The position numbers were made by a program, and so were the translations under genes. Shown piece by piece: positions 20,744 to 58,816 of a stretch of DNA of 64,000 nucleotides. The stretch spans positions 1,148,413 through 1,212,412 of the forward strand of contig CAWCOU010000006.1 in the NCBI GenBank assembly GCA_963797335.1. The letters run 5' to 3'. Every line of letters starts with the position of its first letter. Within the stretch, counting starts at the first letter, position 1. The notes beneath the pieces are model-generated. The model searched no databases. It was not told where the DNA came from and was given only the letters and a program-made list of their open reading frames with translations. The stretch comes from an uncultured Gammaproteobacteria bacterium. Lineage in GTDB: Bacteria > Pseudomonadota > Gammaproteobacteria > JAURND01.

Positions 20744-20758
20744 GATAGGAATTTCAGA

Positions 20759-21733: not shown

Positions 21734-21746
21734 AGGAGATGCTGAC

Positions 21747-33871: not shown

Positions 33872-33885
33872 ATGAGGAAAATAGT

Positions 33886-34977
33886 ATGAGTCACACACAC
33901 CCTGAGTTGATGCCTTGTTTACCGGGAGAAACCATTGCGCAGCAACCATTGATTCGACCCTTGCTGTTGCAATTAAAGTCCCTGGTCAGCGCACCGCCGG
34001 ATATCTACCGGGAATTATACCTTGCTACCTTCACTGCATTTGCAGAGTTCTGTCAAGCCATGCCCTTTGATATGCAGCAACCGCAACCCTATAGCTTATT
34101 ACAACGCCAATTGGAATTGGCCATAACCGCGCTGAAATTGCGTCGCGGTCGCATGTTGCCTCAAAACTCTGAAAGTGAGTTGATCGCGGAGCAGGAACCC
34201 TTGTGGACATACGCTGTTTTCACAGCTTGCTTATTCAGCGGGTTAAATCGCCTGCAAAAGGATCGTATCGTTGAATTGTACCTCAATGAGAATGAGAAAA
34301 TCGGTCAATGGTCGGTATTGGCCGGAAATCTATTTGAGCCGAAAACATTTTATACCGTCAGCGGATGGCCGACCCGAACATGGCTGGATCACTTCAGTTA
34401 TCTGGCTTTGCTGATCGGCAGAATTGTTCCTGCTCAAGCTCTGCGCTGGTTGACGACGGACTACGAAGTTTTTTTTAATTGGTGGGAAGCCATTACCATA
34501 AACCTCTGCGAAGAGAGAAAGGATGGATTATCACTATTGATAAAGCAAGCAGCGGAAGAAATAGATTATTCATTCCTTGGAGAAACGTTTAAGAAAAAAA
34601 ATGAACATACCTCTCCATCGGCGAATTCAGCGTTAGAAGACTTCATTGCATGGCTGAAAAAACAATGCGAAGAGAACGGTTGCGACTCTGAGCGCGATCT
34701 ATTGCTGCGTATCCCGGAAGGTTTTTTTATTGAATTACATCGTGTTGCCGATTTTCTACGGTGTCATCCTCAATATGGTTCTCCAGAGCATTTTGTACGC
34801 ATTCTAAAAGGGTATTTACTAAAAGAGAACGATTCCACGGTACACTGCTACCGTTCAGCTCGTTTTGAAGAACGTTTGCTTTTGCATGGGGTTATCCTAC
34901 CTGAAGACTATTTACCACCCATCGTGAAATCGCTGCCCTATCAATCCAGTTTTGTCAGTGAAATCCCATTATTATAG
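33886..34977 (+). CDS. hypothetical ICE protein downstream of the coupling protein
   Basis: 363 aa, no motif recognised. Same operon. Confidence 0.5.
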   Translation: MSHTHPELMPCLPGETIAQQPLIRPLLLQLKSLVSAPPDIYRELYLATFTAFAEFCQAMPFDMQQPQPYSLLQRQLELAITALKLRRGRMLPQNSESELIAEQEPLWTYAVFTACLFSGLNRLQKDRIVELYLNENEKIGQWSVLAGNLFEPKTFYTVSGWPTRTWLDHFSYLALLIGRIVPAQALRWLTTDYEVFFNWWEAITINLCEERKDGLSLLIKQAAEEIDYSFLGETFKKKNEHTSPSANSALEDFIAWLKKQCEENGCDSERDLLLRIPEGFFIELHRVADFLRCHPQYGSPEHFVRILKGYLLKENDSTVHCYRSARFEERLLLHGVILPEDYLPPIVKSLPYQSSFVSEIPLL

Positions 34978-36204: not shown

Positions 36205-36263
36205 TGTGTTAAGAACATTTGTGGTAAAGAATTCAGTTAAAATAGATATGTTATAAGTCGTTT

Positions 36264-36375
36264 CACTGTGCGACTTTAAATCACAGTGAAGACCAGGTGT
36301 GCTACGATGAAATTTCCTTGGTCGTCGGGATTTTTCCCGATTCGTAGCTGTACCCATTTTTGGGGATTCTACTGT
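36264..36375 (+). other. conserved structured noncoding element, copy A, in a ~280-nt hairpin-rich leader upstream of ssb
   Basis: Hairpin CACTGTG-cGACTtTAAAtCa-CAGTG, then GCTACGATGAAA ... TTCGTAGCTGTACCCaTTTT..GGGGATTCTaCT. The same blocks recur at 47978..48098. Confidence 0.5.
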
Positions 36376-36536
36376 ATTTTTTGGGGCTTAGGCTCTTTCT
36401 ACTGATTCGCGGGTTATACCCGTTCCTCATCGCAATGTATCGCGATTTTCCACTTCCTGACAGGGAAACTACTCTTCCCTGTTGGGCAAGATGCGTTTCT
36501 CTTTTAGGTTTTTCATAACTTTTAAGGAGAAACATC

Positions 36537-36974
36537 ATGTCATCTTCATTGAACCTCGTTCAATTAATCGGTCACGTCGGCAAAGAACCCGAAGCCTTAA
36601 AATCAGGCAAAAACGGCTCTTTTGTTCGCGTTTCTTTGTCAACCACCAAAACGTACACTTCAGAAACCGGTGAACGTAAAGAAGTGGTTGATTGGCATAC
36701 TGTGTATTTCAACAATCGTCTTGGCAACGTAGTTAAGGAGCATTTAAACAAAGGTTCCTATATTTATGTTGCTGGCGAATTGCGCACCACAGTATGGCAG
36801 GATAAAGAGAATCAAAAACGGTACAACACCGCCGTTTATGCCTCTGAATTAAAGTTTTTGGATAAAAAGCCCATGAACAAATCATCTTCTAAGGAGTTGT
36901 CGCCTGAACAGGAGTCAATACCGGATGAAGCTGAACTCAATGCCTACGAGGAATATGCAGAAGCTAATAATTAG
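36537..36974 (+). CDS. ssb: single-stranded DNA-binding protein
   Basis: LVQLIGHVGKEPE...TEWH OB-fold pattern. Acidic C-terminal tail. Confidence 0.85.
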   Translation: MSSSLNLVQLIGHVGKEPEALKSGKNGSFVRVSLSTTKTYTSETGERKEVVDWHTVYFNNRLGNVVKEHLNKGSYIYVAGELRTTVWQDKENQKRYNTAVYASELKFLDKKPMNKSSSKELSPEQESIPDEAELNAYEEYAEANN

Positions 36975-39116: not shown

Positions 39117-39180
39117 GCATTTGTTCAAGACGACCGGGTTTTTCTTTATTGGAAAACCCTTCGTTTTATTTCCCATATGG

Positions 39181-39228
39181 GGAGAAACTTCTCCCTGCTG
39201 GGGCGTTTCTCTCTATATTTTATCTTTT
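39181..39228 (+). terminator. G-rich hairpin GGAGAAACttctCCCtgctGGGgcGTTTCTC + T-run
   Basis: Outer 7-bp stem GAGAAAC/GTTTCTC. Same family. Confidence 0.5.
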
Positions 39229-39240
39229 AGGAGAAACGCT

Positions 39241-40335
39241 ATGTTATTTCAACGACTCGCCCGAAATTTTGTCAAATTCGGGTATTTTCCAACCGACAGT
39301 GAAACGCTGAAACGTGTACTTGCTGCCATAGCTCCCTGCGAAAGCGGCACTATGGCTATTTTCGATCCCACCGCCGGTGAGGGTGTTGCCCTGGCCGAAT
39401 GCAAACATCATTTAGGTCAAGATCGCATTCTCGCCTACGGTGTCGAAATTGATGAAGAGCGTGCCTGGCACGCCAAAACACTATTGGATCACTGCATTCA
39501 CGGTGATTTGATGGATTGCATCATCAGTAAGAACAGTTTTGGGTTGGTTTTCTTTAATCCGCCTTACGGGGATTTGAGTAAAGATCAAAGCGGCGGCCAT
39601 TTCACAATGGAAGGCCGTGCGCGCCTGGAAAAATTGTTTTACCGGCGCACGGTGGGTCTGCTGCAAAAGGGTGGAGTCATCGTCATGATTGTTCCGCACT
39701 ATTCACTGGACAGTGCTTTTGCCGATTGGATATCGCGGCATTTCACAGCCGTTAAGACTTACCTGGCGCCTGAGCAACAATACAAGCAAGTAGTGTTGTT
39801 TGGGATCCGCCGGGAAGTCGATAACGTCAGTGATCGCCATGCTATACGACAGCGGTTAGCGCGTATAGGCCAGGGGGAATTACCGCCCGTCTTGCCGGAA
39901 ATTTGGCTGGATGAGTCTTATACGGTTCCTGCGGTCAAAACCGCTGTTTCCCGTTTCTGCATTAGCCGACTGGATGCTCGGCAGTTAGCGGAAATGCGGG
40001 ACAACACACCAGGCTTATGGTCGCAGTTTACGCTGCGTTTCAGCCAAGCTTTAACCGGTCAGAAACAACCACTGATGGATTTATCGCAGTGGCATTTGGC
40101 CTTAGCTTTGGCTGCCGGACAAATGTCGGGAGCGGTGACCAGCCGGGATGGGCGTACTTACCTGATTCGGGGCAGTACTTATAAAACCCAAACCGAGCGT
40201 GTCATCTGCGAACTGGATGAGGAAGGCAAGGAAACCTGGGTGCGTGTGCGGTTGGATCGATTTGTGCCGACCCTACGCGCTTTAGACATGACGCCGAAGA
40301 GTAATACCTTCGGTCAAGTGCTAACCATACGTTAA
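39241..40335 (+). CDS. orphan N6-adenine DNA methyltransferase (no cognate endonuclease)
   Basis: Motif I FDPTAGEGV. Motif IV FFNPPYG. ATG at 39241 follows AGGAGAAAC. The track start 39121 runs through the terminator. Confidence 0.7.
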   Translation: MLFQRLARNFVKFGYFPTDSETLKRVLAAIAPCESGTMAIFDPTAGEGVALAECKHHLGQDRILAYGVEIDEERAWHAKTLLDHCIHGDLMDCIISKNSFGLVFFNPPYGDLSKDQSGGHFTMEGRARLEKLFYRRTVGLLQKGGVIVMIVPHYSLDSAFADWISRHFTAVKTYLAPEQQYKQVVLFGIRREVDNVSDRHAIRQRLARIGQGELPPVLPEIWLDESYTVPAVKTAVSRFCISRLDARQLAEMRDNTPGLWSQFTLRFSQALTGQKQPLMDLSQWHLALALAAGQMSGAVTSRDGRTYLIRGSTYKTQTERVICELDEEGKETWVRVRLDRFVPTLRALDMTPKSNTFGQVLTIR

Positions 40336-40347
40336 GGAGACATCACA

Positions 40348-40950
40348 ATGACAACTGAATTTTTACAATCAGAGGAATTGTCGGGTCTGTTTATCGACGG
40401 TCTGGTCACTGACTCGGAGGACAATTTATTGTTTCTTTCCGCCTGGGGGAATGAATCTCAGGTGCAACACATACGGGCGCAATTATCTCTGCCTGTATGG
40501 GAAGGGCAATTGCGTCATTTTCAACTGCAAAATCCGAAGGGCTTACGTGTGGATACAGTCCGTTTAGATCGTAACGTACTGGAAGACATCACCGGCAGGC
40601 CGTTGGGAAATACGGTATTTTCCCATCTGACTCAGTTGTGGATTTATCATCGTTTAGCAGTCACGCCGGACAACGGCAATCATCAGGCCGTGTTGTTGCG
40701 TCAACACAGCGAAAGTGAAAAGCTGTTTAAAAAGCGTGTTTGGGAGGCGGTGCAAGTGATTTGTCCGGTTCCTTTGCATTTTGGCTGGGAACCCTTTTTA
40801 TTGGATAAATTGGTTTTAAATCATTGGGTGACTTTTTGTCGTGGGTTTCAAGTCGATGCTTGTTGTCTGAATTTTTCCGACTCTGAGGTAGAAGCTTTTA
40901 TCTCGGATCAGGTACGGACAGGGGCGTTAACTTTACCTTCGCTACAATAA
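40348..40950 (+). CDS. hypothetical protein between methyltransferase and helicase
   Basis: 200 aa. RBS aaggaga. Confidence 0.5.
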   Translation: MTTEFLQSEELSGLFIDGLVTDSEDNLLFLSAWGNESQVQHIRAQLSLPVWEGQLRHFQLQNPKGLRVDTVRLDRNVLEDITGRPLGNTVFSHLTQLWIYHRLAVTPDNGNHQAVLLRQHSESEKLFKKRVWEAVQVICPVPLHFGWEPFLLDKLVLNHWVTFCRGFQVDACCLNFSDSEVEAFISDQVRTGALTLPSLQ

Positions 40951-41066
40951 GTCATTTTTATCGTCGGTCGATAGCACCATCATCGACCGGCAATTTTTTT
41001 ACCCGTAGGGGTCGGCAACCCCTACGGGCTGCGTGACCTCTGCTTTTTACTAGACTGGAGAGAGCT

Positions 41067-43433
41067 ATGTCACTGGAAATCAATTCAATACCGACCGGAT
41101 TTAATATACCGGCCGTTACTTCAATCGTTGAGGAGGAGTTTGACGACAATCAGGTTGCATCATTAACGGATGACGATGCCAATCCACCTACAGTTCTGCC
41201 TTTATCACAATTCATCGATGATTTTGGGACGGGACTATTGCAAGCAGTGCGACGACAAAATCCACCGCTGTTTAATGGCTTGGTTAACGAGAAACGTGCA
41301 GCAGTTTTAGCCGGTTTAAAACGTCAGCCGTTTGTCGCTCAAGCACGAGTGGTGCAGGCCGTATCGCAATTGCTGCTCGATCGAAATGAACGAGCCGCAA
41401 TTGTGAACGGAGAAATGGGCGTGGGAAAAACGCAGATGGGTATTGCCATCGCCGCTGTGGCTCATGCGGAAGGTCATCATCGTACTTTGGTGCTTTGCCC
41501 GCCGCATTTGGTTTACAAGTGGCGTCGTGAAATTCTGGAGATTGTTCCTGATGCGCAAGTCGTTATTTTAAACGGCTCCGATACTTTGAAGAAATTGCAG
41601 GCTTTGGTCGGACAAGAGAAATTCTTGCCCAATTCAACGCCGGTATTTTATGTCATGGGTCGGGTAAGACTGCGTATGGGACATCACTGGAAGCTCTCAG
41701 TAGTGCCGCGGCGCGTTTACCACGCGTTAAACGCTCAGGAAGAAGACGGCGTGACTCAGCAGGTGGACAAACACAGCGTGTTGGCCAGTTGCGGCCATTG
41801 CGGTGCTTTTGTCGCGACGGTAACCGGTAAATATCTGAGGATGGAGCAAATATCCTCCGATCATAAGCTGAACTGTCTGCAATGCCGTGAGCCCTTATGG
41901 ACATTGGTACATCCTCGTCAACCTGCACCTTTAAAGGAACAGGTTCGTCAAGGTCTGTGCCAGTTGCCGGGGATTGGTAAGCAAATGGCCGAACGGCTGC
42001 TCAATCAGTTTGATGAAGGGTTATTGGCGAGCAGTTTAAGCGATAACCTCTACCAACTGGTGCAGCTGATGGACGATAACGGTCAGTTTGTGTTTTCCGA
42101 TCGGCAGGCAAAACGGATAGAGCGTGCATTAGGAAGCTTTGAGGTGAACATCGGCCAGGCGGGATATCAAGCGTCGGAGTATATCAAACGCTATCTCCCG
42201 AAAGGCTTTTTTTCACTGCTCATTGTGGACGAAGCGCATGAGTTTAAAAACGCCAGCAGCGCGCAAGGCCAGGCAATGGGTGTATTGGCCGGTCAGGTCA
42301 ATAAAGTCTTATTGCTGACGGGAACGCTGATGGGCGGTTATGCCGATGATCTCTTTTATTTGCTGTGGCGTATTTTACCCCACCGCATGATAGAAGATGG
42401 TTATGGCTACAACTGCCGCGGCTCCCTGGGTTCTGCCGCTATGGGGTTTATGCAGAAGCATGGCATCCTGAAGGAAGTCTATAAAACGACGGAGGAAGGC
42501 CATCACCGGACGGCTCGCGGTAAGCGTGAATACGTGCAGACCAGCAAAGCCCCCGGTTTCAGTCCGTTGGGTGTGGCGCGTTACCTGCTGCCTTATACTG
42601 CATTTTTAAAGCTGCGGGATTTGGAGCAGAATGTGTTGCCGGAGTATCGGGAACATTTTGTAAACGTGGCCATGACTTCAGAGCAATCGGCTTGCTATGA
42701 GGAATTGGAACGTGCGCTGAAAAACGAGCTGCGTGGTGCTTTACGCAGAGGAGACCATACCCTGTTAGGTGTGGTGCTAAACTGCCTGTTAGCCTGGCCG
42801 GATTGTTGTTTTCGTGAGGAAACGGTGGTTCATCCCAGACGAAACACGGTTTTAGCCCACGTCCCGATTGTCCTGGACGAGGATCCTTCTCCGAAAGAAC
42901 GGCAGATGTTGGAACTGTGTTTGCAGGCCAAACGTGAAGGTCGAAAGACATTGGTGTATACCATTTACACTGGTACTCGCGACACAACCGTGAGGCTGAA
43001 AACGTTGTTGGAGCAAGCCGGTCTGAAAACAGCCGTATTGCGTTCCACCGTAGCGGCAGATCGAAGGGAAGATTGGATTATGGAACAGGTTGACAAGGGG
43101 ATTGACGTTTTGGTTTGTCATCCCGAATTGGTAAAAACCGGCCTTGATCTTTTATCCTTTCCGACGATTGTGTTTATGCAGTCTGGGTATAATGTTTATA
43201 CTTTGCTGCAAGCGACACGACGCAGTTGGCGCATCGGTCAAACTCAACCGGTGGCTGTTCATTTTCTGGGTTATGAACGGACGGCGCAAATAGAGTGCCT
43301 TTCACTGATGGCCAAGAAGATTGCGGTGAGTCAATCCACCGCAGGGACAATGCCCGAAACCGGCCTTGATGTGTTGAACATGGAGGCTGAGAGTGTTGAA
43401 GTGGCGTTGGCTAAGCAGTTGCTTGAAGAGTAG
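41067..43433 (+). CDS. SNF2-family DEAH-box helicase
   Basis: Walker A GEMGVGKTQ. Motif II LLIVDEAHEFKN. Motif VI QATRRSWRIGQTQPV. Confidence 0.85.
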   Translation: MSLEINSIPTGFNIPAVTSIVEEEFDDNQVASLTDDDANPPTVLPLSQFIDDFGTGLLQAVRRQNPPLFNGLVNEKRAAVLAGLKRQPFVAQARVVQAVSQLLLDRNERAAIVNGEMGVGKTQMGIAIAAVAHAEGHHRTLVLCPPHLVYKWRREILEIVPDAQVVILNGSDTLKKLQALVGQEKFLPNSTPVFYVMGRVRLRMGHHWKLSVVPRRVYHALNAQEEDGVTQQVDKHSVLASCGHCGAFVATVTGKYLRMEQISSDHKLNCLQCREPLWTLVHPRQPAPLKEQVRQGLCQLPGIGKQMAERLLNQFDEGLLASSLSDNLYQLVQLMDDNGQFVFSDRQAKRIERALGSFEVNIGQAGYQASEYIKRYLPKGFFSLLIVDEAHEFKNASSAQGQAMGVLAGQVNKVLLLTGTLMGGYADDLFYLLWRILPHRMIEDGYGYNCRGSLGSAAMGFMQKHGILKEVYKTTEEGHHRTARGKREYVQTSKAPGFSPLGVARYLLPYTAFLKLRDLEQNVLPEYREHFVNVAMTSEQSACYEELERALKNELRGALRRGDHTLLGVVLNCLLAWPDCCFREETVVHPRRNTVLAHVPIVLDEDPSPKERQMLELCLQAKREGRKTLVYTIYTGTRDTTVRLKTLLEQAGLKTAVLRSTVAADRREDWIMEQVDKGIDVLVCHPELVKTGLDLLSFPTIVFMQSGYNVYTLLQATRRSWRIGQTQPVAVHFLGYERTAQIECLSLMAKKIAVSQSTAGTMPETGLDVLNMEAESVEVALAKQLLEE

Positions 43434-47328: not shown

Positions 47329-47922
47329 ATGCGTCAAGAACTCATCACCTACGATATTTTTTGCCAGGCCATCCAAAAAATGCAGGAACAGGGCGAAAAA
47401 ATGTCTGTGCGCACCATACTCAGCCACACCGGCGGCTCTTTTGCGAAGATAGCAGACTTTCTGAAACGCTGGAGAACGGAGCAAGCCTATGCTCAATCTC
47501 AGACAGGCCGGGAGATATCCCAGCATCTGACACAAGCCATACTGGCAGAAATTGGCAAAGCCGAGGAACAGGCCAAAGCTGCGTTGGAGGTGCAACTCTC
47601 CCAGGCCAATGAACAACTAGAAGAAACTCATGAGATTTTGAGCAAACAGGAGAAGTTAATAGAAGAATACGAACAACAGATCGGCCAACTTAATCAACAA
47701 GTCGCCGTGATGACTCAAGTTCAGAATCAGCAATCGGAAAGAATGCAACAGGTAGAAAAGAAATTGGAACAAACGGTAGAGGCTCAGCATACCGCCGATA
47801 AACAAGCCGCCATTGCCGAAGCTCGGTATGCCGAATTGGAGAGGCAACTGGTTAATACTCAGAAAAAAAGTGAAATGCCTAAAGAAAAGCAGGCTAAACA
47901 ACGCAAGGTTGTTCTGACTTAA
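47329..47922 (+). CDS. kfrA: KfrA-like protein: KfrA_N DNA-binding domain + long coiled coil
   Basis: N-terminus ITYDIFCQAIQKMQEQGEKMSVRTILSHTGGSFAKIADFLKRWR resembles the KfrA N-domain. The rest is E/Q/K heptads. Confidence 0.6.
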   Translation: MRQELITYDIFCQAIQKMQEQGEKMSVRTILSHTGGSFAKIADFLKRWRTEQAYAQSQTGREISQHLTQAILAEIGKAEEQAKAALEVQLSQANEQLEETHEILSKQEKLIEEYEQQIGQLNQQVAVMTQVQNQQSERMQQVEKKLEQTVEAQHTADKQAAIAEARYAELERQLVNTQKKSEMPKEKQAKQRKVVLT

Positions 47923-47977
47923 CTGCGGACCTATTGACATATCATAAGGCTGATATATGATCTAGCTAGTATGTCTA

Positions 47978-48098
47978 CACTGCAAGACTCTAAACCGCAG
48001 TGATAAATCAGGCGAAGCTACGATGAAACTCCCTGATTGCCGCTCTAAGGCTTCGTAGCTGTACCCGTTTTCTCCGGGGATTCTTCTCATACCTTTGA
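47978..48098 (+). other. conserved structured noncoding element, copy B
   Basis: CACTGC-aaGACTcTAAAcCg-CAGTG ... GCTACGATGAAA ... TTCGTAGCTGTACCCgTTTT..GGGGATTCTtCT. Followed by further hairpins up to the DUF551 gene. Confidence 0.5.
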
Positions 48099-48369
48099 TA
48101 GCTGTTCAGCTATTTTTGCTTTCGACACAAGCATATTAATCCCAAGTCTACCTAATCCGAACCTTTACCGGCGAAGAATCAGTAGATAAGGCTTTCCTCA
48201 TCGTAATTTGCAGCGACTCTGTTACCCAAGTAAGCGGCTTCGGCAGCTTATGAAATCGTCTCTCAGGAGGCGTCGTTTTCATAGCAATATGAAAATGTCA
48301 CTTAACTGTTAAGGTTGGAATACTAGTAATTAGCGTGATAATTGAATTTCATTACTGGGGGGATTATTC

Positions 48370-48816
48370 ATGAAAATTGAAATAGAGATTTTCAAAACTA
48401 GCAAACAACTGCCGAAACATGGTCAAGAAATATTATTTTATGCTCATAATGCTTGGAATTTCGGAAGTTTTTCCAAAGAATCGGATACACCTTTTGCTTC
48501 ATATCTTTTCCTCGATGATGAACCACTTCCTAAACAAGAAGTCGATTATTGGATGCCCTTGCCGAAGTTACCGGTTGATGAGACTGATTGCATGAAGACT
48601 GAGTCAGGCATTTTTAAGACTATTAAAAAATTGCCGAAAGATGGTCAAGAAATATTATATCACGCTCATGATGGCTCGTGGAATTTCGGAGATTTTACCA
48701 AAGAATCGGACACGCCTTTTACTTCATATCTATTTCTCGATGATGAACCACTTCCTAAAGAAGAAGTTGATTACTGGATGCCTCTGCCAAAATTGCCGCA
48801 AGAGAGAAATGATTAA
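48370..48816 (+). CDS. DUF551-like protein with an internal tandem duplication (2 x ~70 aa)
   Basis: Repeats LPKHGQEILFYAH..WNFG.F.KESDTPF.SYLFLDDEPLPK.EVDYWMPLPKLP occur twice. Confidence 0.6.
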   Translation: MKIEIEIFKTSKQLPKHGQEILFYAHNAWNFGSFSKESDTPFASYLFLDDEPLPKQEVDYWMPLPKLPVDETDCMKTESGIFKTIKKLPKDGQEILYHAHDGSWNFGDFTKESDTPFTSYLFLDDEPLPKEEVDYWMPLPKLPQERND

Positions 48817-48837
48817 AAAGAGCTTTCAACAATCATT

Positions 48838-49134
48838 TTAATGTCTTTGTATATTACCTGATAGCAACAGCATCATATCGGGGTGGGAATGTGTTTGGGC
48901 GACATCAAAAGGCGTCATTCCATCGGCAGTTTTAGACAAGGGATCTGCTCCTGCCTGCAATAGCAATTGTGCGCTTTGTAGCGCATTGGCTTGTGCGGCA
49001 AAATGCAGCGGAGTTAAACCAACCCAGTCTTCGTATCCGTTGGGATCAACTCCTGTTTGCAACAGCTCCTCTGTTACTGCCACATCATCAATTTCTATCG
49101 CTTCAATCAGCTCTTCCATCGGATTATTCCTCAA
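48838..49134 (-). CDS. ankyrin-repeat protein (eukaryote-like)
   Basis: 98 aa. GLTPLHFAAQANALQSAQLLLQAGADP is the ANK consensus. Confidence 0.7.
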   Translation of the reverse strand: MRNNPMEELIEAIEIDDVAVTEELLQTGVDPNGYEDWVGLTPLHFAAQANALQSAQLLLQAGADPLSKTADGMTPFDVAQTHSHPDMMLLLSGNIQRH

Positions 49135-49366
49135 GTTAAATATGTTATCAGTAGGACATATTGTTTGATTCTAACACTGCCATCAACATCCTTACAAACG
49201 CTGATTGAGAGCATTATTTTATTTATGCTGACATTTGATATTTATATGCTCAAATTCCACCAGCCTTGACAAAAACCTTGTTGCAAAGGTACAGTGTCCA
49301 AGAAGTATCAGGATAATATAAAAACGCGTTTGTTTATTTTTATTGGCAAGGGATAAATACATAGAG

Positions 49367-49582
49367 ATGAAGCAAGAGATTCCATTGCAAAACCGTTTTC
49401 TAGACACATTACTTAAAGAAAAAACACCGGTGGCGATTTACTTGGTGAAAGGCATCAAGTTGCAAGGTTACATAGAGAACTTTGACCCCGATGTAATACT
49501 CCTAAAGAATGACACCACTGTTCAAATGATCTATACGCATTCTATTTCTACCGTATATCCTTTGAAGGAAAATTTCAGTTGA
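49367..49582 (+). CDS. hfq: Hfq-family RNA chaperone paralog encoded on the element
   Basis: [60 protein letters not shown] carries the Sm1/Sm2 motifs of Hfq. ATG at 49367. Track TTG start 49343. Confidence 0.8.
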
Positions 49583-49592: not shown

Positions 49593-50540
49593 CTAGCGCA
49601 GGTAGGTTTTAATTTCTGAAGCCCGATAATGCCCCATCTGCTGACTGACACATTCACGTGCTTTATCCCATGTCATTCCGGCCTGTAACATCTCTCTCAA
49701 ACGCTGCTGCGCAAACGTGTGCCGCAGACCGTGTAATCCTCTTGAGTTAAAAAGAGCCTGCATAGATGCCTCACTCCAAAGCTTGGAAAATTTAAATCCC
49801 GCCGGTAAATCATAATACTGATGGGCAACCACATTTGCCTGTCCGCGCTCTCTAAAATCCTTGGGTATTGGCAAACGAAATTCCTCTAATTTGGCTGCCG
49901 TTTCGGGAGATATAGTAGAGGTATATTCATGTCCGCCCTTGCCAGTGAATGTCACTTGAACCCAGTGTTCTCTCCCTAGAAATCGGTCTATATGCAGCTT
50001 ATTTAATCTGGCATTTTTAGCAGGTCGTTCCGCCGCTAAACATAAAGAAGCCAAGTCCTTAGCGCGGCAGCCGGATTCTAGGAGAATCTGGACGGCCAGG
50101 TTGCCATTGGCGGTATGAATTTTTTGTTTAATGGCGTTAATTTGTAATGGAGTATAAGCACGTACCTGCTGCGGTTTATCCCGTTTATCGGTAGCCCTGG
50201 AAGGAACATTTAGCTGTCCGACCAAAGGCAATAACTCCAAGGCTTTCGCATATCCTTGTACAGTACGGACTCGGATATTTTCGTGCAGCCGAGCATTAAT
50301 ATAAGCTTGTGCCTGTTGTCGGGTTATATCTTTTAGACGCTGGATACCATGTACTTTTTGTATGGTTTCTGCCGCACGACCAAGGTCACCTTGGTAACGC
50401 ATTACGGTACGATCGCTGCGGAGGACGGCTCCGCTGGCCTTGCTTTTTCCACGGTTGGCGCGGGCATCGATAAATTTTGCCGCCTGTTCTCGCATGGAGA
50501 ATTTGGCATGTCCTTGCACTTGAGTTTTCGTCTTTTCCAT
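49593..50540 (-). CDS. tyrosine site-specific recombinase (second integrase-family gene)
   Basis: 315 aa. C-terminus HGLRHTFAQQRL...HYRASEIKTYLR. Confidence 0.8.
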   Translation of the reverse strand: MEKTKTQVQGHAKFSMREQAAKFIDARANRGKSKASGAVLRSDRTVMRYQGDLGRAAETIQKVHGIQRLKDITRQQAQAYINARLHENIRVRTVQGYAKALELLPLVGQLNVPSRATDKRDKPQQVRAYTPLQINAIKQKIHTANGNLAVQILLESGCRAKDLASLCLAAERPAKNARLNKLHIDRFLGREHWVQVTFTGKGGHEYTSTISPETAAKLEEFRLPIPKDFRERGQANVVAHQYYDLPAGFKFSKLWSEASMQALFNSRGLHGLRHTFAQQRLREMLQAGMTWDKARECVSQQMGHYRASEIKTYLR

Positions 50541-50553: not shown

Positions 50554-51036
50554 TCATGTTATGTTTGAAATGGCGTTTAAATATCGTTGAATACTGTGGT
50601 GGGATATAGTCAATCCTTTCTTCATAAACAGCCATAATTTTATATCGCGGCAAGAGGCTTTTGCCGCAGATAAAGACATGATTTCCGAGTGATAGCGTTC
50701 CAATTTACGGGAGCCTGGCACCAAGGGGCGGGCATTCGCCAACCTGCGCAGTTGTTTGATTTCCAAGGTATCCATTTGAGCTTCCTCAGCAGTTAAGGGA
50801 GCCAAACAAACGGTCTTTAGATTGCGCTTCCGACCGATACGCCTAATAAGCTTTTCCGGGTGTTCGCCCCGAAGCAAAGCGGAACTTGTTGCCTCTAAAA
50901 GCCGTTTACACACCTGCCCATTCCGGTTGTTTGGCATGGCCATTATTACTTGTTTTAAGCAGGTATAAATGTCGCCAATAGCATCTATTTCCAGGTGATT
51001 TTTATCCGAGTTTTCCGTCTCAAATGCTTGTCTCAT
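50554..51036 (-). CDS. hypothetical protein co-transcribed upstream of the recombinase (accessory/directionality factor candidate)
   Basis: 160 aa. A degenerate homolog lies at 56917..57123. Confidence 0.5.
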   Translation of the reverse strand: MRQAFETENSDKNHLEIDAIGDIYTCLKQVIMAMPNNRNGQVCKRLLEATSSALLRGEHPEKLIRRIGRKRNLKTVCLAPLTAEEAQMDTLEIKQLRRLANARPLVPGSRKLERYHSEIMSLSAAKASCRDIKLWLFMKKGLTISHHSIQRYLNAISNIT

Positions 51037-51114: not shown

Positions 51115-51149
51115 GGGTACCCTGACGGGCGCAGCCCGTCAGGGTACCC
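51115..51149. promoter_or_regulatory. perfect 16-bp palindrome GGGTACCCTGACGGGC-gca-GCCCGTCAGGGTACCC upstream of the recombinase operon
   Basis: Read directly, 79 bp upstream of the 50554..51036 start. Confidence 0.5.
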
Positions 51150-51350: not shown

Positions 51351-51551
51351 ATGCCAATTATCAAACCCCTTAATTTGGAAACAGTCAAAATCAGAGCCCA
51401 ATTTCCTAAATCCCTGGATGCAGAGATGGAGCAATACATTCAATGGGCGGGAGTTACAAATAAAGAATTTTTCCTAATTGAGGCAGCAAAATATTTATTA
51501 AGAATGGATCGAGAATGGAAGGCTTACAGAGGAGGCCAAAAAATGCTTTGA
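51351..51551 (+). CDS. small hypothetical protein (66 aa), possible RHH/antitoxin-like
   Basis: The internal ATG at 51351 follows AAGGAG. The longer track ORF (from 51225) lacks an RBS. Confidence 0.3.
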   Translation: MPIIKPLNLETVKIRAQFPKSLDAEMEQYIQWAGVTNKEFFLIEAAKYLLRMDREWKAYRGGQKML

Positions 51552-51712
51552 CATTAGAATTTATCATTCTGATTTTTTAAGTAAGGGGCAATTTAAAATT
51601 TGAGCATAAATAAATTTAAACGGGAGTTTCATCGTTTATTTAAAGCTCATCATTAAAGCTTACAGAAATCTGTCCAGCCTTGAGGCATACATACAGGATA
51701 AACTGGTTGAAT

Positions 51713-52720
51713 CTATTTGCCAATTTCCAGGGATGTTAATCCTACTATTTTGTCTTTGTCTATTGCTGGAATTTCACCTTTATACATTCGCATAGTGTCA
51801 AATATCTTTTCTAGTTTAAAATGTTCTACCATCGCAGAAGCATACGGGCTAGTTTCTGAAATATCGATTGAAACAGTAGCATCTTTCCCTGCGAAGCTGC
51901 ATAAACTGCGGTAAAGTTGATCGGCTACTGTTTCGCTATTAGCAAATAGAGGGGCTATTTTATAATTATTTGGCTCCACAGTGCGGCTAATTACGCCATA
52001 ACCAATTATATTTCCTTCTCTATCTAAAGCAGCCAAAGCGTGTGAATCAGGCATTTTAAGCCAGTGCGTTAAGAAAGCTTCCCTAGGGGAAGAAAATATT
52101 TTTTTATCATATTCTACGATATCTTTTGTCAAAAACTTATCGGTTAGGATAAGACCTTCTTTCTTTATTCCTCTATCGCTTGGAATTTTATCTGGTTTTC
52201 CTTTCCAACGGGTGTTTAAAAAGCTGGGATAAAAACCTGATCTGCCATATCGTTCTATTTGCTCCATGACAGCGTTTAAGCCGATGCTAGAGCAAATCTC
52301 TAATTTAGAAGTTACTGCATCCCATAACATAGACCCAAATCCTTGTCCTCTTTTGCTTGGAGTAACGATGAAGAGACCTAAAAATGCTAATTTCTGAGAG
52401 TATTTTACAGCAGCCAATGATGCTGTAGGCTCTCCGTCTACTTCCAAGATATAATAGCCTTTAGGGTCTGCCGCATAGAGTGATTCTGTTTCGTGTTTCC
52501 CAGGATTCCAGCCTTCATCTTCTGCCCACTTAAAAACTAGCTGTAAATCTTTTGGAGTCATGTTGCGGATTGAGATATCTTGTTTCAGTATTAAAGGGGT
52601 ATAAGGTGGAATAACTTTGATCGATGATATTGAGCGCAGGTGCTTTGGTGCAGATAACAAATTCTGATAGGGTAGCTGTCCTAAGCGGGTAACATTTCTA
52701 AAAAAAAGTATTTTGTACAT
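51713..52720 (-). CDS. GNAT-family N-acetyltransferase (two-domain)
   Basis: TPSKRGQGFGSMLWDAV acetyl-CoA-binding motif. Confidence 0.7.
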   Translation of the reverse strand: MYKILFFRNVTRLGQLPYQNLLSAPKHLRSISSIKVIPPYTPLILKQDISIRNMTPKDLQLVFKWAEDEGWNPGKHETESLYAADPKGYYILEVDGEPTASLAAVKYSQKLAFLGLFIVTPSKRGQGFGSMLWDAVTSKLEICSSIGLNAVMEQIERYGRSGFYPSFLNTRWKGKPDKIPSDRGIKKEGLILTDKFLTKDIVEYDKKIFSSPREAFLTHWLKMPDSHALAALDREGNIIGYGVISRTVEPNNYKIAPLFANSETVADQLYRSLCSFAGKDATVSIDISETSPYASAMVEHFKLEKIFDTMRMYKGEIPAIDKDKIVGLTSLEIGK

Positions 52721-52926
52721 GATATCTTTCTCGTAATAATAACTCGCTAATTTATTATAATTATTATTTACCGTTTTATTATTAATCAGTTGAATTCCAA
52801 GTTGCCCAAAAACCTGACTATCTATTCTTAATCATTTCTTAAATCTGATACAATAGGTTCAAAAAAATAACAAAATAATAATTCGATTAATTTGGTGCAT
52901 GGTAGGATAAATAGGAGATAAAGTAA

Positions 52927-55005
52927 ATGTCGAATCAAAAACAACAGTATAAGCCTCGCAAAATACATCATCTTGTTGAAATTCAAGCAGCAGTAAGGCC
53001 GACAGAAACTGCAATTGTTTTTTTTAATGAAACGTTAAGCTATGGAGAATTAAATTCGAGAGCAAATCAGTTTGCAAAGTACCTGGTTCATCAAGGTGTC
53101 AAGCCTGGCGATATAGTACCGATCATATCCAATAAATCCCCTGCATTATTTGTAATGATATTGGGGATATTAAAATCAGGCGCTGCTTATTCCCCATTAA
53201 ATGTGGATAGCCCCATTAAACATATTGAAGCTGTTGTTAAAGAAACCCGAGCAAAATTTATATGTATAGAATCCAATTTGGCTAACCGATTTTCGCTTGA
53301 TGAGGATGTTTTGGTCATTGAAGCTGACGATTTACAGAAAAAAATTGGTTCTTATGGTGATGATGAAGTAGATGATGGTGCGCAAACAGAATCCGATTTA
53401 GCTTATGTTATTTATACTTCTGGAACAACCGGAAATCCTAAAGGAGGAATGATTGCCCATGCTAATTTATTGCCAACTTATCTTTCTTGGAAAAAATCTT
53501 ATCAATTAACCTCATCTGACATTCATCTCCAAATGGCTCCTGTAGGCTTTGATGTATTTGCCGGGGATTGGATTAGAGCATTATGTTCTGGAGCAAAGCT
53601 TGTCTTATGTCCAAAAAACATTTTAGTAGATTCACGGCAACTATATTTATTGATCCAAAAAGAGAAAATAAATTGTGCTGAGTTTGTTCCTGCTGTTTTA
53701 AGGCAATTAATTAACTTCGTTGAAAGAAATCAATATGATCTGGCTCAATTTCGCTTATTGGTGTGTGGCTCAGATCAATGGGTTATGGGTGAATATCGGG
53801 CGGTAAAAAAACTGTGTGGAAAGGAATCGCAAGTCATAAGCTCTTATGGGTTAACTGAAACGACTATCGATAGTAGTTTTTACGAAGAAGACTCAGAAGT
53901 TCCTCTTTTAGATGATAGGTCGCCTGTTCCTATTGGCAAGCCATTTAATCATGTTAATTTCTATTTGGCTGAAGATGAAAAATTAGTGCCTCGTGGAGAA
54001 ATAGGTGAAATTTATATCGGAGGCTCTGGCGTTGGTTTGGGATATTTAAACCAACCAAAATTAACCGCAGATAAATTTGTTTTGAGAACTTTTACAGGTG
54101 ACGTTGGTGAGAGATTATATAGAACTGGAGATCAAGGGAGATTGTTAGATGATGGAAATTTTTTATTTTTAGGCAGAAACCAGGAACACATAAAAATTCA
54201 TGGCAAAAGAGTTGATCTGCCTTCGTTGGAATCTGTGATTAATCAGTATAATAAAATAAAATTTAGTATAGTGACTCCAATATTTAAAGCTGATTCCGAT
54301 CAAGTTATTTTAAAATGCTTTTTTACGCTCAAAGATAGTTCTCTCACTTTTGAAGAGCTTGCTAATCATATTAGGAGAGAACTACCGTGCTACTATGTCC
54401 CCAGGGAATTTTATCAAGTTGAGTCAATACCTTTGTCTTTAAATGGTAAAATTGATAAACGCGTTTCAGCTCAGAAGGTTGTTAAAGAACTTCGACCACA
54501 GATTCATGCTCCTACGAACGAGCTGCAAAGGTACTTAGTTGATTTATGGAAGAAAAGACTGGAATTAGAGGAAGTGGGCACAAAGAGTAGTTTTCATAAT
54601 CTTGGCGGTTCCTCTCTCTTATTTGTAGCTATGCTCAGCGATGTTAATAAAAAATTCAATTTAAGTATATCATATACCATTGACGTTGAGACCATAGAGG
54701 ATTTGGCAAAACATATAGAAAATCAACAGCTCATTCCAGCTCAACGATTGCATAACCCTGCGTCAGCATTCGCTTTTAGAGATGCAAAACAGGCAAAATA
54801 TACCTCATCGTATTTTATGGGTATTTTTTCCCCTATATTGCTTCACCCCGCAAAAAAATCCCCCAAAATTCTTTCGTCAGAAGTTCCGAAGAGATCATTT
54901 GCGTACTCAATTTTTCAGCAACCTTTGCCAAAACAACCATTGTCCTCGAAATTAACCAAGGCTACTAAGACACTTCTATCCTTGGCATTTAGAAAAGGAA
55001 AGTAA
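52927..55005 (+). CDS. stand-alone NRPS-like adenylation-thiolation (A-T) didomain protein
   Basis: AMP-binding core YVIYTSGTTGNPKG. A10 GKIDKR. Carrier-protein motif FHNLGGSSLLFV. Confidence 0.8.
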   Translation: MSNQKQQYKPRKIHHLVEIQAAVRPTETAIVFFNETLSYGELNSRANQFAKYLVHQGVKPGDIVPIISNKSPALFVMILGILKSGAAYSPLNVDSPIKHIEAVVKETRAKFICIESNLANRFSLDEDVLVIEADDLQKKIGSYGDDEVDDGAQTESDLAYVIYTSGTTGNPKGGMIAHANLLPTYLSWKKSYQLTSSDIHLQMAPVGFDVFAGDWIRALCSGAKLVLCPKNILVDSRQLYLLIQKEKINCAEFVPAVLRQLINFVERNQYDLAQFRLLVCGSDQWVMGEYRAVKKLCGKESQVISSYGLTETTIDSSFYEEDSEVPLLDDRSPVPIGKPFNHVNFYLAEDEKLVPRGEIGEIYIGGSGVGLGYLNQPKLTADKFVLRTFTGDVGERLYRTGDQGRLLDDGNFLFLGRNQEHIKIHGKRVDLPSLESVINQYNKIKFSIVTPIFKADSDQVILKCFFTLKDSSLTFEELANHIRRELPCYYVPREFYQVESIPLSLNGKIDKRVSAQKVVKELRPQIHAPTNELQRYLVDLWKKRLELEEVGTKSSFHNLGGSSLLFVAMLSDVNKKFNLSISYTIDVETIEDLAKHIENQQLIPAQRLHNPASAFAFRDAKQAKYTSSYFMGIFSPILLHPAKKSPKILSSEVPKRSFAYSIFQQPLPKQPLSSKLTKATKTLLSLAFRKGK

Positions 55006-55146
55006 TATACTTATTGAATATTTTTACAGCAATTAACGAGGCTAGGGATTGCCATAAAATACCAATTGTTAATCATTTGCTGTTATTTTTAGCATTTTAA
55101 AGCCTGTCCGAGCAGAGCTTTTCTAAAGCACAATGGAGTTGTTTTA

Positions 55147-56844
55147 ATGCTATATGATGATTCAGAGTTGATTGAGCAAATTATTCTTAATCTACCCAAT
55201 TATGTCTTTTGGCAAGATAATCGCGGTATCTTTAAAGGTTGCAATCATAATTTTGCAACCCTTCTGAGCCTGGACTCCCCAAGTAAAATTATTGGCCTAA
55301 CAGAAGATACCTTACCTTTTGTGAAACACCTGACATCCCATGCCGAAGATTTACAATTTATAAGCTCTGGAAAACCCATTTTTGTTAAAAAAGTTGATCT
55401 CGACTTTCAAGGTGAGAGTCGGCATTTTTTAATTGAAAAGAAATTTGTTTTTGATAAAAACAAGCATATTAGTGGAATAATTGGTGTTATTAGTGATATT
55501 ACTTATCAAGAAAAATTGAGTGTTTCTCTGGAGCAGGCCGCTTCTATTCAAAAGTCCTATATTGCCGATATAAATAAAGAAGTTACCGGTCAAGAACATC
55601 GTGATATGTCCATTGAGGAGTATACGGATGAAATTAGGCATCATTTAGAAAATATTATAGCTGCTATGCCCGGGAACGTGTATTGGTTAAACAGAGAATG
55701 TACCCTCTTGGGTGGTAACGATAATTTAGCCAAGATGTTCGGATTAAAATCTCGTACCGAATTGGTGGGTTTAACCTACGATCAAATGGCTGAACTTGCT
55801 CAATGGACAGAAGGACAAGGAGAATCATTTAAAAATGCAGAGTTAGAAGTTATGGCATCGGGAATGCCTCGCTTTAACGTAGAAGAACCACCCGTGGTTA
55901 TAAACGATGAAACCAGATATTACATGTCCAATAAAGTCCCCCTGTATAATAAAAAAAATAAAATCATTGGTGTTTTAGGTATTTCTTTAGATATTACAGA
56001 TAGAAAGCTTGCAGAAGAACGAGAAAAAACCGCTCTTTTGGAATCATCCCAAGCTAGAGCAAAAGCTGAGTCAGAAGAGCAGCTAAGACAAGTGGTGATG
56101 ATCTTGACGGGTAGTATTGCTCATGATTTACGCTCACCTATTAGCGTTTTAGCAATGAAAGGTGGTTTCTTGGAAACATATCTTCCTATCCTAATAAGCG
56201 GATATGACAAAGCTGTGGCTTCTCAACTTACTACAGAAGATGATGAAAACATTCCCGATCGCATGAAAGATCATCTTGCAGTAATAGGACATAAAATATG
56301 CGAGACTACCAAAGAAATGCACGATTTTATTGATATCACCCTTCAAACTTTAAGCAAAGCATTAAGCAGTAATCTTACACGAGAAGACATGGTTGTTTGC
56401 TCCATGTGGCACTGTATCCATAATACTTTATATCGATATCCTTTTACTGGTCAGCAGCGGGAACTTATAAAATGGGATCAGAACGATTTCAATTTTATGG
56501 GAAATGAATTACTGATGATTAGGGTATTTTTTAATCTAATAAAAAATTCACTTGAGCAAATTGAAAAGAATAATCGTGGCGAAATTTCTATAAGCACTGA
56601 GGTTGGTGATAATGAAAATATCATACGGTTTAAAGACACTGCTGGCGGAGCGGCTCCCGAAATAATCAATAACTTATTTTCTGGTTATCGCACTACGAAA
56701 GAAAAAGGAACTGGGGTTGGTCTGGCTTTTTGTAAAATCACTATGGAAAGCTTTGGTGGAAGCATAAGTTGTAATTCCGTTTATGGGGAATATATTGAAT
56801 TTATTCTTAGTTTTCCGTCAATTAATCCAGAAAAAAATATGTAA
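55147..56844 (+). CDS. sensor histidine kinase, PAS-PAS-HisKA-HATPase_c, cytoplasmic
   Basis: Two PAS-like segments (NYVFWQDNRGIF...; NVYWLNRECTLL...). H-box IAHDLRSPI. G-box GTGVGLAFCK. Confidence 0.75.
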   Translation: MLYDDSELIEQIILNLPNYVFWQDNRGIFKGCNHNFATLLSLDSPSKIIGLTEDTLPFVKHLTSHAEDLQFISSGKPIFVKKVDLDFQGESRHFLIEKKFVFDKNKHISGIIGVISDITYQEKLSVSLEQAASIQKSYIADINKEVTGQEHRDMSIEEYTDEIRHHLENIIAAMPGNVYWLNRECTLLGGNDNLAKMFGLKSRTELVGLTYDQMAELAQWTEGQGESFKNAELEVMASGMPRFNVEEPPVVINDETRYYMSNKVPLYNKKNKIIGVLGISLDITDRKLAEEREKTALLESSQARAKAESEEQLRQVVMILTGSIAHDLRSPISVLAMKGGFLETYLPILISGYDKAVASQLTTEDDENIPDRMKDHLAVIGHKICETTKEMHDFIDITLQTLSKALSSNLTREDMVVCSMWHCIHNTLYRYPFTGQQRELIKWDQNDFNFMGNELLMIRVFFNLIKNSLEQIEKNNRGEISISTEVGDNENIIRFKDTAGGAAPEIINNLFSGYRTTKEKGTGVGLAFCKITMESFGGSISCNSVYGEYIEFILSFPSINPEKNM

Positions 56845-56916
56845 GACAATTACATCGCATTGAAATTTTTTAGTAATTATCAAATCAACTACTGTCTAAT
56901 AGTATTAATTATATTT

Positions 56917-57123
56917 TCAATAACTCTGTATAGTTGGAATTTCTTCAGGATGCGCGCAACTTTGCTTTCCGTATAATATCACATAATACATATGAGTGAT
57001 AGACAAAAGCTTTGCTCCAATAAACAGCTTCCTGTAAAAAAGAAAAGCAAACTGTTCTCTTGATGCTTGTCGATGGATACATCTGATCAGTTTTCCCGAG
57101 TGTTCACCTTGCATTAAAGCCAA
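56917..57123 (-). pseudogene. degenerate fragment homologous to the 50554..51036 protein
   Basis: MQGEHSGKLIRCIHRQAS vs LRGEHPEKLIRRIGRKRN. Truncated, abutting the IS. Confidence 0.4.
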
Positions 57124-57237
57124 TCAATAACTAACAGGAATGATTGTTGGATTTTTTTAAAGTAAAGAATGGTATTCAACTTGGTTACGCATACCTTTAA
57201 ACATAAATATTAATTATTTATTGCTATTGTTTTTAAA

Positions 57238-58485
57238 CTCTGTAGGGTACGAAAATTGAAGAAAGAGAGGAATTAAGGGAGAGAAAAAGATAACTCGCTG
57301 ATTTTAAACAAAAACCATATAATCATTTTCGACGAAGAAAAGGAGGTTATATGGATAAAAATAAAACCAGCGAGTTAGTAGGCATTTTAGGGCAAGAATT
57401 AAAATGGAACAAGGCAAGATTAACTTGTTTTAGTCTAATGATATTAGCGCTATTAGCGGCCAGAACAATCAGTCTGTTCAAAATGGCTGTGGTGATGGAT
57501 AGTCCGGCAGAGCAATCATCGCGCTATAAACGATTAAAATGCTTTTTCCGAGAGTTTAGTATTGATACGACGACGATAGCGCGTTTGATATTTAAATGGT
57601 TTGGATTTACTGAGAAAAAGTTATATTTGACGATAGATAGGACAAATTGGTTTTTAGGTAAGTCAAAGATAAATGTATTTACTCTGGGAGTAGCGTACGA
57701 AGGAATAGCAATCCCATTATTTTGGAAATTACTACCGAAAGCGGGTAACGCTTCAGCTAAAGAGCATATGGATTTAGTAGAACGTTTCGTTTCTGTGTTT
57801 GGAAGTGAATGTATTTTAGGTATTTTGGGTGATAGAGAATTTGCCAGCAAAGCCTTTTTCAAATGGTTAAATAAGAAAAAAATTGCTTTTTATATTCGCA
57901 TCAAAGAAGGCAGTCAAGTCAATATCAAAGGGAAAAAGTGGATAAAAGCCAAAAAAATTTTCAATCATTTAAATCTTAAAGAAAAGTCGATGTATATGAT
58001 GAAAATTACTCTTTGGGATGACACTTCTGTGTTTTTAGCAGGCTCTCGTTCAGAACGCGGAGAATTGATGATAGTAGCTACCAACCAAAATCCTAAAAAT
58101 GCTATTGCCATCTATCTGAGACGCTGGGAAATTGAATCATTGTTTCAAAATTTAAAGGGACGAGGTTTTAATTTTGAGCAAACCCATATCACTGCCCTGG
58201 ATCGCTTAGAGAAAGTCATGGTCTTGCTCGCATTGACTTTGTGTTGGGCCCATAAAGTGGGCGAATGGCGAGCCATACAAAAACCTATTCCCATCAATCG
58301 TTACCGCGATAGTCAAAGACCACAATTTAGTTATTTTCGATATGGTTTGGATTTGTTACAAGAGCTTGTTTTTAAAGGGTATCAACAAACCAAAAAACAA
58401 TGGAAAGCCTGCTTAAAACTAATAACTTCTAGCTCAATATTCACTCATACGCTGGAGGTGCTATGAATTTTCGTACCCTACAGAG
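57238..58485 (+). mobile_element. intact IS4-family insertion sequence, 1248 bp, 20-bp perfect terminal inverted repeats, 9-bp target duplication GTTTTTAAA
   Basis: IRL CTCTGTAGGGTACGAAAATT (57238..57257). IRR AATTTTCGTACCCTACAGAG (58466..58485). Direct repeats at 57229..57237 and 58486..58494. Confidence 0.8.
57351..58466 (+). CDS. IS4-family DDE transposase
   Basis: 371 aa. YLRRWEIESLFQNLK motif. The stop overlaps IRR. Confidence 0.8.
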   Translation: MDKNKTSELVGILGQELKWNKARLTCFSLMILALLAARTISLFKMAVVMDSPAEQSSRYKRLKCFFREFSIDTTTIARLIFKWFGFTEKKLYLTIDRTNWFLGKSKINVFTLGVAYEGIAIPLFWKLLPKAGNASAKEHMDLVERFVSVFGSECILGILGDREFASKAFFKWLNKKKIAFYIRIKEGSQVNIKGKKWIKAKKIFNHLNLKEKSMYMMKITLWDDTSVFLAGSRSERGELMIVATNQNPKNAIAIYLRRWEIESLFQNLKGRGFNFEQTHITALDRLEKVMVLLALTLCWAHKVGEWRAIQKPIPINRYRDSQRPQFSYFRYGLDLLQELVFKGYQQTKKQWKACLKLITSSSIFTHTLEVL

Positions 58486-58816
58486 GTTTTTAAAAAAATT
58501 AATCTTTATTTTAAGCTAGCCTTAAGAATAGCAAGAAAAAATAATTCCTCGTTTTCCATTTATTTTTGTGGAAATATGGTTTAAAATACAAATAAACAAA
58601 CATTCAATCGCTCTTAAAATGCTAATCATTCTCAATAATGGTTATTATTTCCCTCAAACAGTTTTCAGGATGCAACTGTTGTATCTGAAGTGATCGCAGA
58701 AATCATTATTTCACATAATAACAATATCAAATGTCATCATGACCACAATGGATAAAAATCATGATTGAAATAGGGTATTTCTATTTTTAAAAATTAAAAA
58801 AATAAGGATTATACGT

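Follow-up and report, generated by a model that had tools for sequence, protein, structure and literature searches.

The window, as the whole stretch of DNA analysed here is termed, comprises 64,000 nucleotides from an uncultured Gammaproteobacteria bacterium (assembly GCA_963797335.1, contig CAWCOU010000006.1, positions 1,148,413 to 1,212,412 of the forward strand). Its hfq-like gene occupies positions 49367-49582 on the + strand and encodes 71 amino acids plus a stop codon. In the list of open reading frames, the frame is given as 49343-49582 (+), with 79 amino acids counted from a TTG codon, and the internal ATG at 49367 yields the 71-residue product. The 44-residue peptide quoted in the original prediction was found exactly in this frame. 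In the alignment with a homologous locus (L001), the ATG and about 25 nt 5' of it are kept whereas TTG 49343 is not, so that ATG 49367 is taken as the start of the gene. The upstream in-frame extension from the TTG (49343-49366, +), which is included in a 79-aa version called in a Logan assembly, is probably not translated. The GC content of hfq is 37%, compared with 45-47.5% in the flanking backbone genes. A promoter-like site, TTGACA-18-TACAGT, was located at 49266-49295 (+) in the intergenic region between hfq and a divergent ankyrin gene; it agrees with the consensus at 10 of 12 positions, this being a consensus match only, and the intergenic region that contains it is partly conserved in L001.

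Profile and structure comparisons place the product in the Hfq family. It matched the Pfam Hfq profile PF17209 with an E value of 9.8e-22 and 76.8 bits (cutoff 27) over profile positions 1-62 of 64, and scored 74.3 bits with NCBIfam TIGR02383, above the cutoff of 61.7. With the stricter equivalog model PRK00395, it reached 85.6 bits, below the cutoff of 95. Likewise, 35 distinct solved Hfq chains matched the protein, the best with an E value of 1.4e-18 and residues 6-67 aligned. Over residues 6-67 it carries the same Sm/Hfq domain as the canonical proteobacterial Hfq proteins of E. coli and P. aeruginosa (PDB 1HK9, 1U1S), with about 58-67% identity. The Sm core stops near residue 66 of 71, and the C-terminal tail is therefore lacking. 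Thus, the original prediction of a small Hfq-family protein without the long C-terminal tail is borne out by these matches and by the extent of the core. An AlphaFold monomer model of the protein, based on a 2-sequence alignment, was unreliable (pLDDT 49.6).

The gene lies in a variable cargo spot between a KfrA gene and a conserved tyrosine-recombinase module. On its left, a KfrA_N-domain protein, a plasmid maintenance-type DNA binder recognised by Pfam, is encoded at 47329-47922 (+), and a 98-aa ankyrin-repeat protein (Pfam) is encoded at 48838-49134 (-), divergent from hfq; the ankyrin gene is kept as a neighbour in L001 and in a second locus, L002. A DUF551-like ORF at 48369-48816 (+) consists of an internal tandem duplication of two units of about 222-225 nt that are 78-87% identical (repeat families D1 and D2). 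On the right, a 315-aa tyrosine recombinase assigned by family alignment is encoded at 49593-50540 (-), convergent with hfq, with the two stop codons 10 nt apart. A co-oriented 160-aa ORF (50554-51036, -) in the ORF list lies upstream of the recombinase gene, and the pair is conserved in relatives, where the ORF product has 159-179 aa. No Pfam match was obtained for the 315-aa recombinase. Nevertheless, its family comprises 44 metagenomic proteins, and since an alignment of 20 members shows no variation at the catalytic residues R159, K201, H270-x-x-R273, H304 and Y313, it can be regarded as a genuine tyrosine recombinase. The module of recombinase and 159-179-aa ORF recurs in related integrative conjugative elements (ICEs) of 'Gammaproteobacteria bacterium' MAGs and one 'Legionellales bacterium' MAG, and the recombinase is, by this comparison of loci, a backbone gene of the related ICEs. 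Between a GNAT gene and the operon of the 160-aa ORF and the recombinase, a strong terminator-like element was seen at 51115-51149 (-), where a T-run follows a perfect GC-rich hairpin of 16 bp.

Farther to the right, a 7-kb cargo block (51534-58486) contains genes for a GNAT protein, an AMP-binding/PP-binding protein, a PAS histidine kinase and an IS4-type DDE transposase (57351-58466). It is absent from L001, which is otherwise collinear with the window around the missing block, and its appearance is that of cargo inserted recently, with an IS at its end.

Most of the window is, by its gene content, one ICE of the PFGI-1/ICEclc/ICEHin1056 class with a GI-type T4SS, and this element carries hfq. 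Seven ORFs in 17124-29721 exceed the NCBIfam cutoffs of models for signature proteins of PFGI-1-class ICEs (TIGR03748, 03759, 03746, 03749, 03752, 03756 and 03755). The conjugation module as a whole, delimited by profiles, extends over 17124-34977 (+) and includes PilL2, TIGR03759/03747/03746/03749/03752, a TraC/VirB4 ATPase, TIGR03756/03755, a TraG_N protein, a coupling protein (31841-33871) and a MobH-like relaxase. The TraC/VirB4 ATPase (24322-27075) shares 36% identity with TraC of ICEHin1056. The relaxase ORF (33886-34977, 363 aa) is a weak match, with 83 bits for NF041494 (cutoff 200) and 82 bits for TIGR03760 (cutoff 161), and it matched Pfam TraI_2 with an E value of 5e-13. Downstream of this module, AcaB is followed by ssb (36537-36974) and by a segment at 39121-43433 (+) that encodes a DUF6094/Eco57I-like methyltransferase, a 200-aa ORF and an SNF2-family helicase, all running in the same direction as ssb and hfq.

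At the left side of the element, a P4-type tyrosine integrase with Arm-DNA-bind_3 and Phage_integrase domains (Pfam) is encoded at 9624-10844 (+). Beside it, at 9436-9482 (-), sequence comparison revealed a tRNA-Lys(UUU) gene reduced to its last 47 nt (3' end), with the 5' half missing; this fragment forms the att direct repeat at the left end of the ICE, which is inserted at a tRNA-Lys gene. An Acinetobacter tRNA-Lys recognised by ARAGORN has the same 3' end at 46 of 47 positions; no tRNA was reported by ARAGORN in the window itself. In this family of T4SS elements, repeats of the last 37-48 bp of a tRNA occur, and PAPI-1 uses tRNA-Lys (PMC3864950). The fragment is present once in the window, and two Logan contigs identical to the window (run ERR11523675) end within it, at window positions 9453 and 9482; because assembly contigs break inside it, it behaves as a repeat. 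A 20-nt repeat at 8165 and 51590 was considered as an att pair and rejected in favour of the tRNA-Lys fragment. By this geometry, the ICE extends rightward of the fragment. The tRNA-derived repeat was seen at this one end of the ICE; an intact tRNA-Lys marking the right end was not found up to about window position 68,043 (68 kb inspected), and the right end lies beyond 68,043. Hence the mobile location that had been predicted for hfq is upheld by the ICE signature proteins, VirB4/TraC, the coupling protein, the MobH-like relaxase, the integrase and the tRNA-Lys att repeat, and its predicted setting amid maintenance cargo and adjoining a tyrosine recombinase agrees with the KfrA_N, ankyrin and recombinase neighbours.

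Just outside the att repeat, at 5973-9265, a ParA-type ATPase (6840-7877) is encoded together with three unannotated ORFs. To judge from its position and content, this segment may be the remnant of another element in tandem at the same tRNA-Lys site. A second related ICE was observed in the same sequencing run (L005, Logan ERR11523675_533191), with a recombinase 79% identical to that of the window, a coupling protein, TraI_2, AcaB and radC and without hfq; it reflects either a genome with two related ICEs or a mixed sample. For the GT9-like protein of a flanking gene, no homologue above 43% identity was found (39% for near-full-length matches), and the named matches were scattered across phyla. 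The host of the ICE is an uncultured low-GC gammaproteobacterium, probably Legionellales-like.

Comparison of related loci indicates that hfq is accessory to this class of element. When window Hfq and E. coli Hfq were used as tblastn queries against the compared loci, Hfq was detected only in L001, L002 and L003, the last being the window's own sequence. No Hfq was found by tblastn in L005-L017, in at most 10 kb on either side of the recombinase, and these thirteen identifiers, duplicates included, represent eight distinct places, several of them short or partial. In the longer loci, the equivalent spot holds radC, a DnaJ-domain gene, ankyrin genes or ardA. Since eight distinct recombinase loci are without hfq within the compared DNA, the gene is considered accessory cargo. 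Functional coupling between hfq and the recombinase, which was considered for their convergent, nearly abutting 3' ends, was set aside: in L001 a gene of 133 aa intervenes between the two, so that their adjacency is not conserved. The surroundings also differ from the canonical miaA-hfq-hflX-hflK-hflC context, the neighbours being the ankyrin protein, KfrA, DUF551 and the tyrosine recombinase.

The Hfq lineage is, by the searches performed, very rare, with two sequence variants known. In a word-indexed search of 5.8 billion proteins, the sole matches were the identical protein and one relative, P0002, which is 89% identical over 63 aligned residues and 85% across the whole alignment. An exhaustive HMMER search of 1.84 billion representatives recovered P0002, followed only by ordinary and tandem-domain Hfqs with at most 67% identity. 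A metagenome scan for further members of the lineage returned only the contig of P0002 (FTIX01000322) again. P0002 originates from a forest-soil metagenome, and L001 and L002 represent one forest-soil element (PRJEB12502). No near-identical DNA was found in plasmid and phage collections. PLSDB includes real plasmids with an annotated hfq. The best 'plasmid' Hfq matches were rejected as accessory copies, being canonical hfq genes on chromids or mislabelled chromosomes. For instance, the 251-kb 'plasmid unnamed1' of Piscirickettsia salmonis (L004, NZ_CP039041.1) carries hfq-hflX-hflK-hflC-purA along with core chromosomal-type genes and does not qualify as an accessory plasmid hfq; this canonical hfq-hflXKC locus contrasts with the ICE location of the window gene, which is outside any miaA-hfq-hflX arrangement. 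Hfq matches in the phage collection were mostly host contamination.

Between the window gene and its L001 counterpart, 63 codons could be compared, with 19 synonymous and 9 non-synonymous differences. For this one sequence pair of 63 codons, dS is about 0.72, dN is 0.063 and dN/dS is 0.09. The DNA around hfq is only 76.5% identical between the two loci. Given the dN/dS of 0.09 between the two copies, hfq is judged to be under purifying selection and not decaying.

In canonical Hfq, Q8, Q41, F42, K56 and H57 form the proximal uridine pocket that grips the 3' tails of sRNAs. The rim residue R16 drives annealing, and Y25, I30 and K31 belong to the distal A-R-N site that is used by mRNAs. The contribution of R16 is illustrated by the R16A mutant, in which captured sRNA-mRNA pairs are almost completely lost, R16 being a residue that stabilises such pairs (PMC12262471). 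Window Hfq was aligned with the Hfq proteins of P. aeruginosa and E. coli and with the 149 best representatives. Three near-invariant functional positions (R16, F/Y42 and K56) and position 41 are altered. R16, which is R in 141 of the 149 best representatives, is replaced by L; Q41, conserved as Q in 124, is replaced by P; the aromatic F/Y42, found in 139, is replaced by D; and K56, found in 147, is replaced by T, which changes the Sm2 motif from YKH to YTH. Positions follow E. coli numbering, in which K56 corresponds to T57 of the window protein, and the beta3-beta4 loop of the latter contains one extra residue compared with canonical Hfq. Further changes are N28K and Q35Y. Q8, Y25, G29, I30, K31, Q33, F39, H57 and the beta4-beta5 sequence are kept.

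These changes are unevenly distributed over the RNA-binding surfaces. On the distal A-R-N face, all five of Y25, G29, I30, K31 and Q33 are the same as in E. coli, N28K being a minor deviation. In the proximal uridine pocket, Q8 and H57 are retained and P41, D42 and T56 replace the other residues. The rim patch reads L16-K17-E18-K19 compared with the canonical R16-R/K17-x-R/K19, so that R16 is gone and two lysines are left. The alignment therefore depicts a protein with a mostly intact distal face and a remodelled proximal pocket and rim. Canonical sRNA matchmaking is doubtful for such a protein because of R16L, F/Y42D, K56T and Q41P, whereas the lineage-specific N28K and Q35Y might compensate or shift specificity. 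The Sm1 and Sm2 motifs had been called unmistakable: this holds as regards membership of the Hfq family, but not for the functional positions, as R16L, F/Y42D, K56T and Q41P depart from the family pattern and Sm2 reads YTHSI and not YKHAI.

P0002 has L16, D42, T56, K28 and Y35 like window Hfq, but L at position 41. The combination of L16, D42, T56, K28 and Y35 was found in no other single-domain protein of the aligned set of 149 best representatives. The nearest pattern is that of the 80-aa P0043, with L16 and D41-D42, yet with K56 retained. In addition, some atypical metagenomic Hfqs (P0061, P0096 and P0107) begin with N-terminal extensions that resemble signal peptides and lack an aromatic residue at position 42.

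Two structured elements on the ICE had been suggested as possible partners of Hfq. Element A (36255-36420, +) lies directly upstream of ssb, and element B (47972-48130, +) precedes the DUF551 gene and begins shortly after a near-consensus promoter at 47934-47961 (TTGACA-16-TATGAT). The two are about 70% identical to each other. Homologues were found in L001 (6762-6926), L005 (4721-4892, -), L006/L008 (4366-4490, -) and L011 (11959-12074, -). The A/B-type motif of about 130-160 nt stands upstream of ssb, the DUF551 gene or, in L006, radC. RNAalifold gave 32 pairs for this motif, 9 of them with compensatory changes. Many of its G-U pairs are possible on the + strand only, which suggests an RNA transcribed in the same direction as the genes that follow. 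The pairing GCTACGA/TCGTAGC overlaps the hairpin GATCAGG/CCTGATC, and these overlapping pairings hint at a pseudoknot. No Rfam match was found at E<=1 in the window or in 47900-49400. As homologues of A and B occur in related ICEs without hfq in the compared DNA, the elements cannot depend on window Hfq, and an obligate partnership is unlikely. The specific tie between Hfq and the duplicated elements that had been proposed is therefore not sustained in its obligate form, though they may interact more loosely.

From the alignment and the gene context, the best-supported reading, which we consider fairly probable, is that the ICE carries, as cargo, a gene for a functional ring protein of Hfq type. 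This protein would bind A-rich RNA but perform poorly with U-tailed sRNAs and in annealing; its role would thus be that of a specialised post-transcriptional regulator or of a rival to host Hfq. The Sm ring is still expected to form because the beta4/beta5 interface (IYTHSISTV) is conserved. A-rich RNA would still be bound through the distal face, as Y25, G29, I30, K31 and Q33 are largely intact. As R16, Q41, F/Y42 and K56 are replaced, sRNA 3' U-tails would be bound poorly and RNA pairs would be annealed poorly. The target of such a protein would most likely be A-rich mRNA leaders of the element or of the host, or it would compete with host Hfq for such leaders, with the protein active while the host harbours the ICE or has just received it. 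The gene probably does not encode a redundant duplicate of the global sRNA matchmaker.

A more specific proposal, which is rather unlikely, is that the ICE employs the protein as an 'anti-Hfq' decoy. With its ring interface and distal face intact and its uridine pocket and rim disabled, it would lift repression by host Hfq. It could do so by joining host Hfq in mixed hexamers of impaired function, or by out-competing host Hfq on A-rich mRNA leaders. As a result, genes for excision, transfer or establishment of the element would be freed from host Hfq-dependent repression. The idea arises from the co-orientation of hfq with ssb, the methyltransferase and the SNF2 helicase, and from the title of Trigui et al. 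2013. According to that title, transcriptome data from an hfq mutant of L. pneumophila reportedly brought to light a new mobile genetic element.

It is similarly improbable that the protein is a fully canonical second Hfq, that is, a global sRNA-mRNA matchmaker which adds to or replaces host Hfq and serves sRNAs of the ICE such as A and B. Such a role would agree with the strong family match and the identity of about 60-67% to canonical proteobacterial Hfq, with the retention of Q8, H57 and the distal-face residues, and with the presence of structured RNA-like elements on the same ICE. It is at odds with R16L, Q41P, F/Y42D and K56T at near-invariant positions, with a score under the PRK00395 equivalog cutoff, and with the presence of A/B-type elements in related ICEs whose compared DNA lacks hfq.

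There is an equally modest chance that the protein is the sole Hfq of a Coxiella-like host without a chromosomal hfq, in which case the ICE would supply the missing function and the term 'paralog' used in the original prediction would be wrong. The related ICEs belong to 'Gammaproteobacteria bacterium' MAGs and one 'Legionellales bacterium' MAG, on contigs of 1.3-1.7 Mb, and C. burnetii has been reported to be without an apparent Hfq (PMC4064990). Nevertheless, a gene that is missing from related ICEs and from nearly all databases cannot represent a stable core function of a lineage, and a chromosomal hfq is present in L. pneumophila. Finally, the possibility that the ICE acquired an Hfq gene that has lost its function and is drifting as a hitchhiker would fit the loss of several functional residues and a very rare lineage with two sequence variants, but is very improbable given a dN/dS of 0.09 at a dS of about 0.7, an intact frame with start and upstream sequence kept in two elements whose DNA differs by 24% over the segment, and the same unusual residues (L16, D42 and T56) fixed in both copies.

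Diverged global regulators, including H-NS, CsrA/Rsm and ProQ/FinO, are carried by mobile elements, which adjust or take over host physiology by means of them. For Hfq, such mobile copies have been reported and are, to our knowledge, barely characterised. Those already recorded are Hfq3 of pXO1 and pQBR0137. The former is an extra Hfq homologue on a mobile replicon of B. anthracis, and its effects depend on distal-face (mRNA-binding) residues (PMC5348863), which makes it a precedent for action of a mobile Hfq through this face. Unlike window Hfq, it is a Gram-positive plasmid protein of distant sequence, on a plasmid and not an ICE, in a host that has chromosomal Hfq1 and Hfq2. The latter is an Hfq homologue on a conjugative element, the Pseudomonas fluorescens megaplasmid pQBR103, with a proposed tie to post-transcriptional control of the host (PMC9928087); it differs in being located on a plasmid beside RsmQ and in being uncharacterised. 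Hfq2 of Burkholderia cenocepacia (PMC3474761) is likewise an additional Hfq-like protein of non-canonical type, regulated in its own way, but it is chromosomal and much longer. The RsmQ/CsrA-type regulator of pQBR103 and the lvrC/csrA-like genes of Legionella genomic islands (PMC3864950) are likewise diverged global RNA-binding regulators on mobile elements, but they have another protein fold and another mode of RNA recognition. Compared with canonical proteobacterial Hfq, window Hfq is set apart by the lack of a tail together with R16L, Q41P, F42D, K56T, N28K and Q35Y.

New at this locus are the carrier, an ICE of the PFGI-1 class in an uncultured and probably Legionellales-like bacterium, and the very rare Hfq lineage itself. 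Also new is a fixed set of substitutions by which, as read from the alignment, canonical residues of the proximal pocket and the rim are lost in a gene under purifying selection. Window Hfq thus resembles a natural separation-of-function mutant on a conjugative element, in which the sRNA pocket and the rim arginine are replaced and the mRNA face is kept. If it is merely another accessory Hfq, it would be a modest addition to a known theme. If it is a modulator of host Hfq or an mRNA-only binder, it would represent a route by which ICEs may interfere with host riboregulation, and it would also offer a helpful tool for studying the faces of Hfq one by one.
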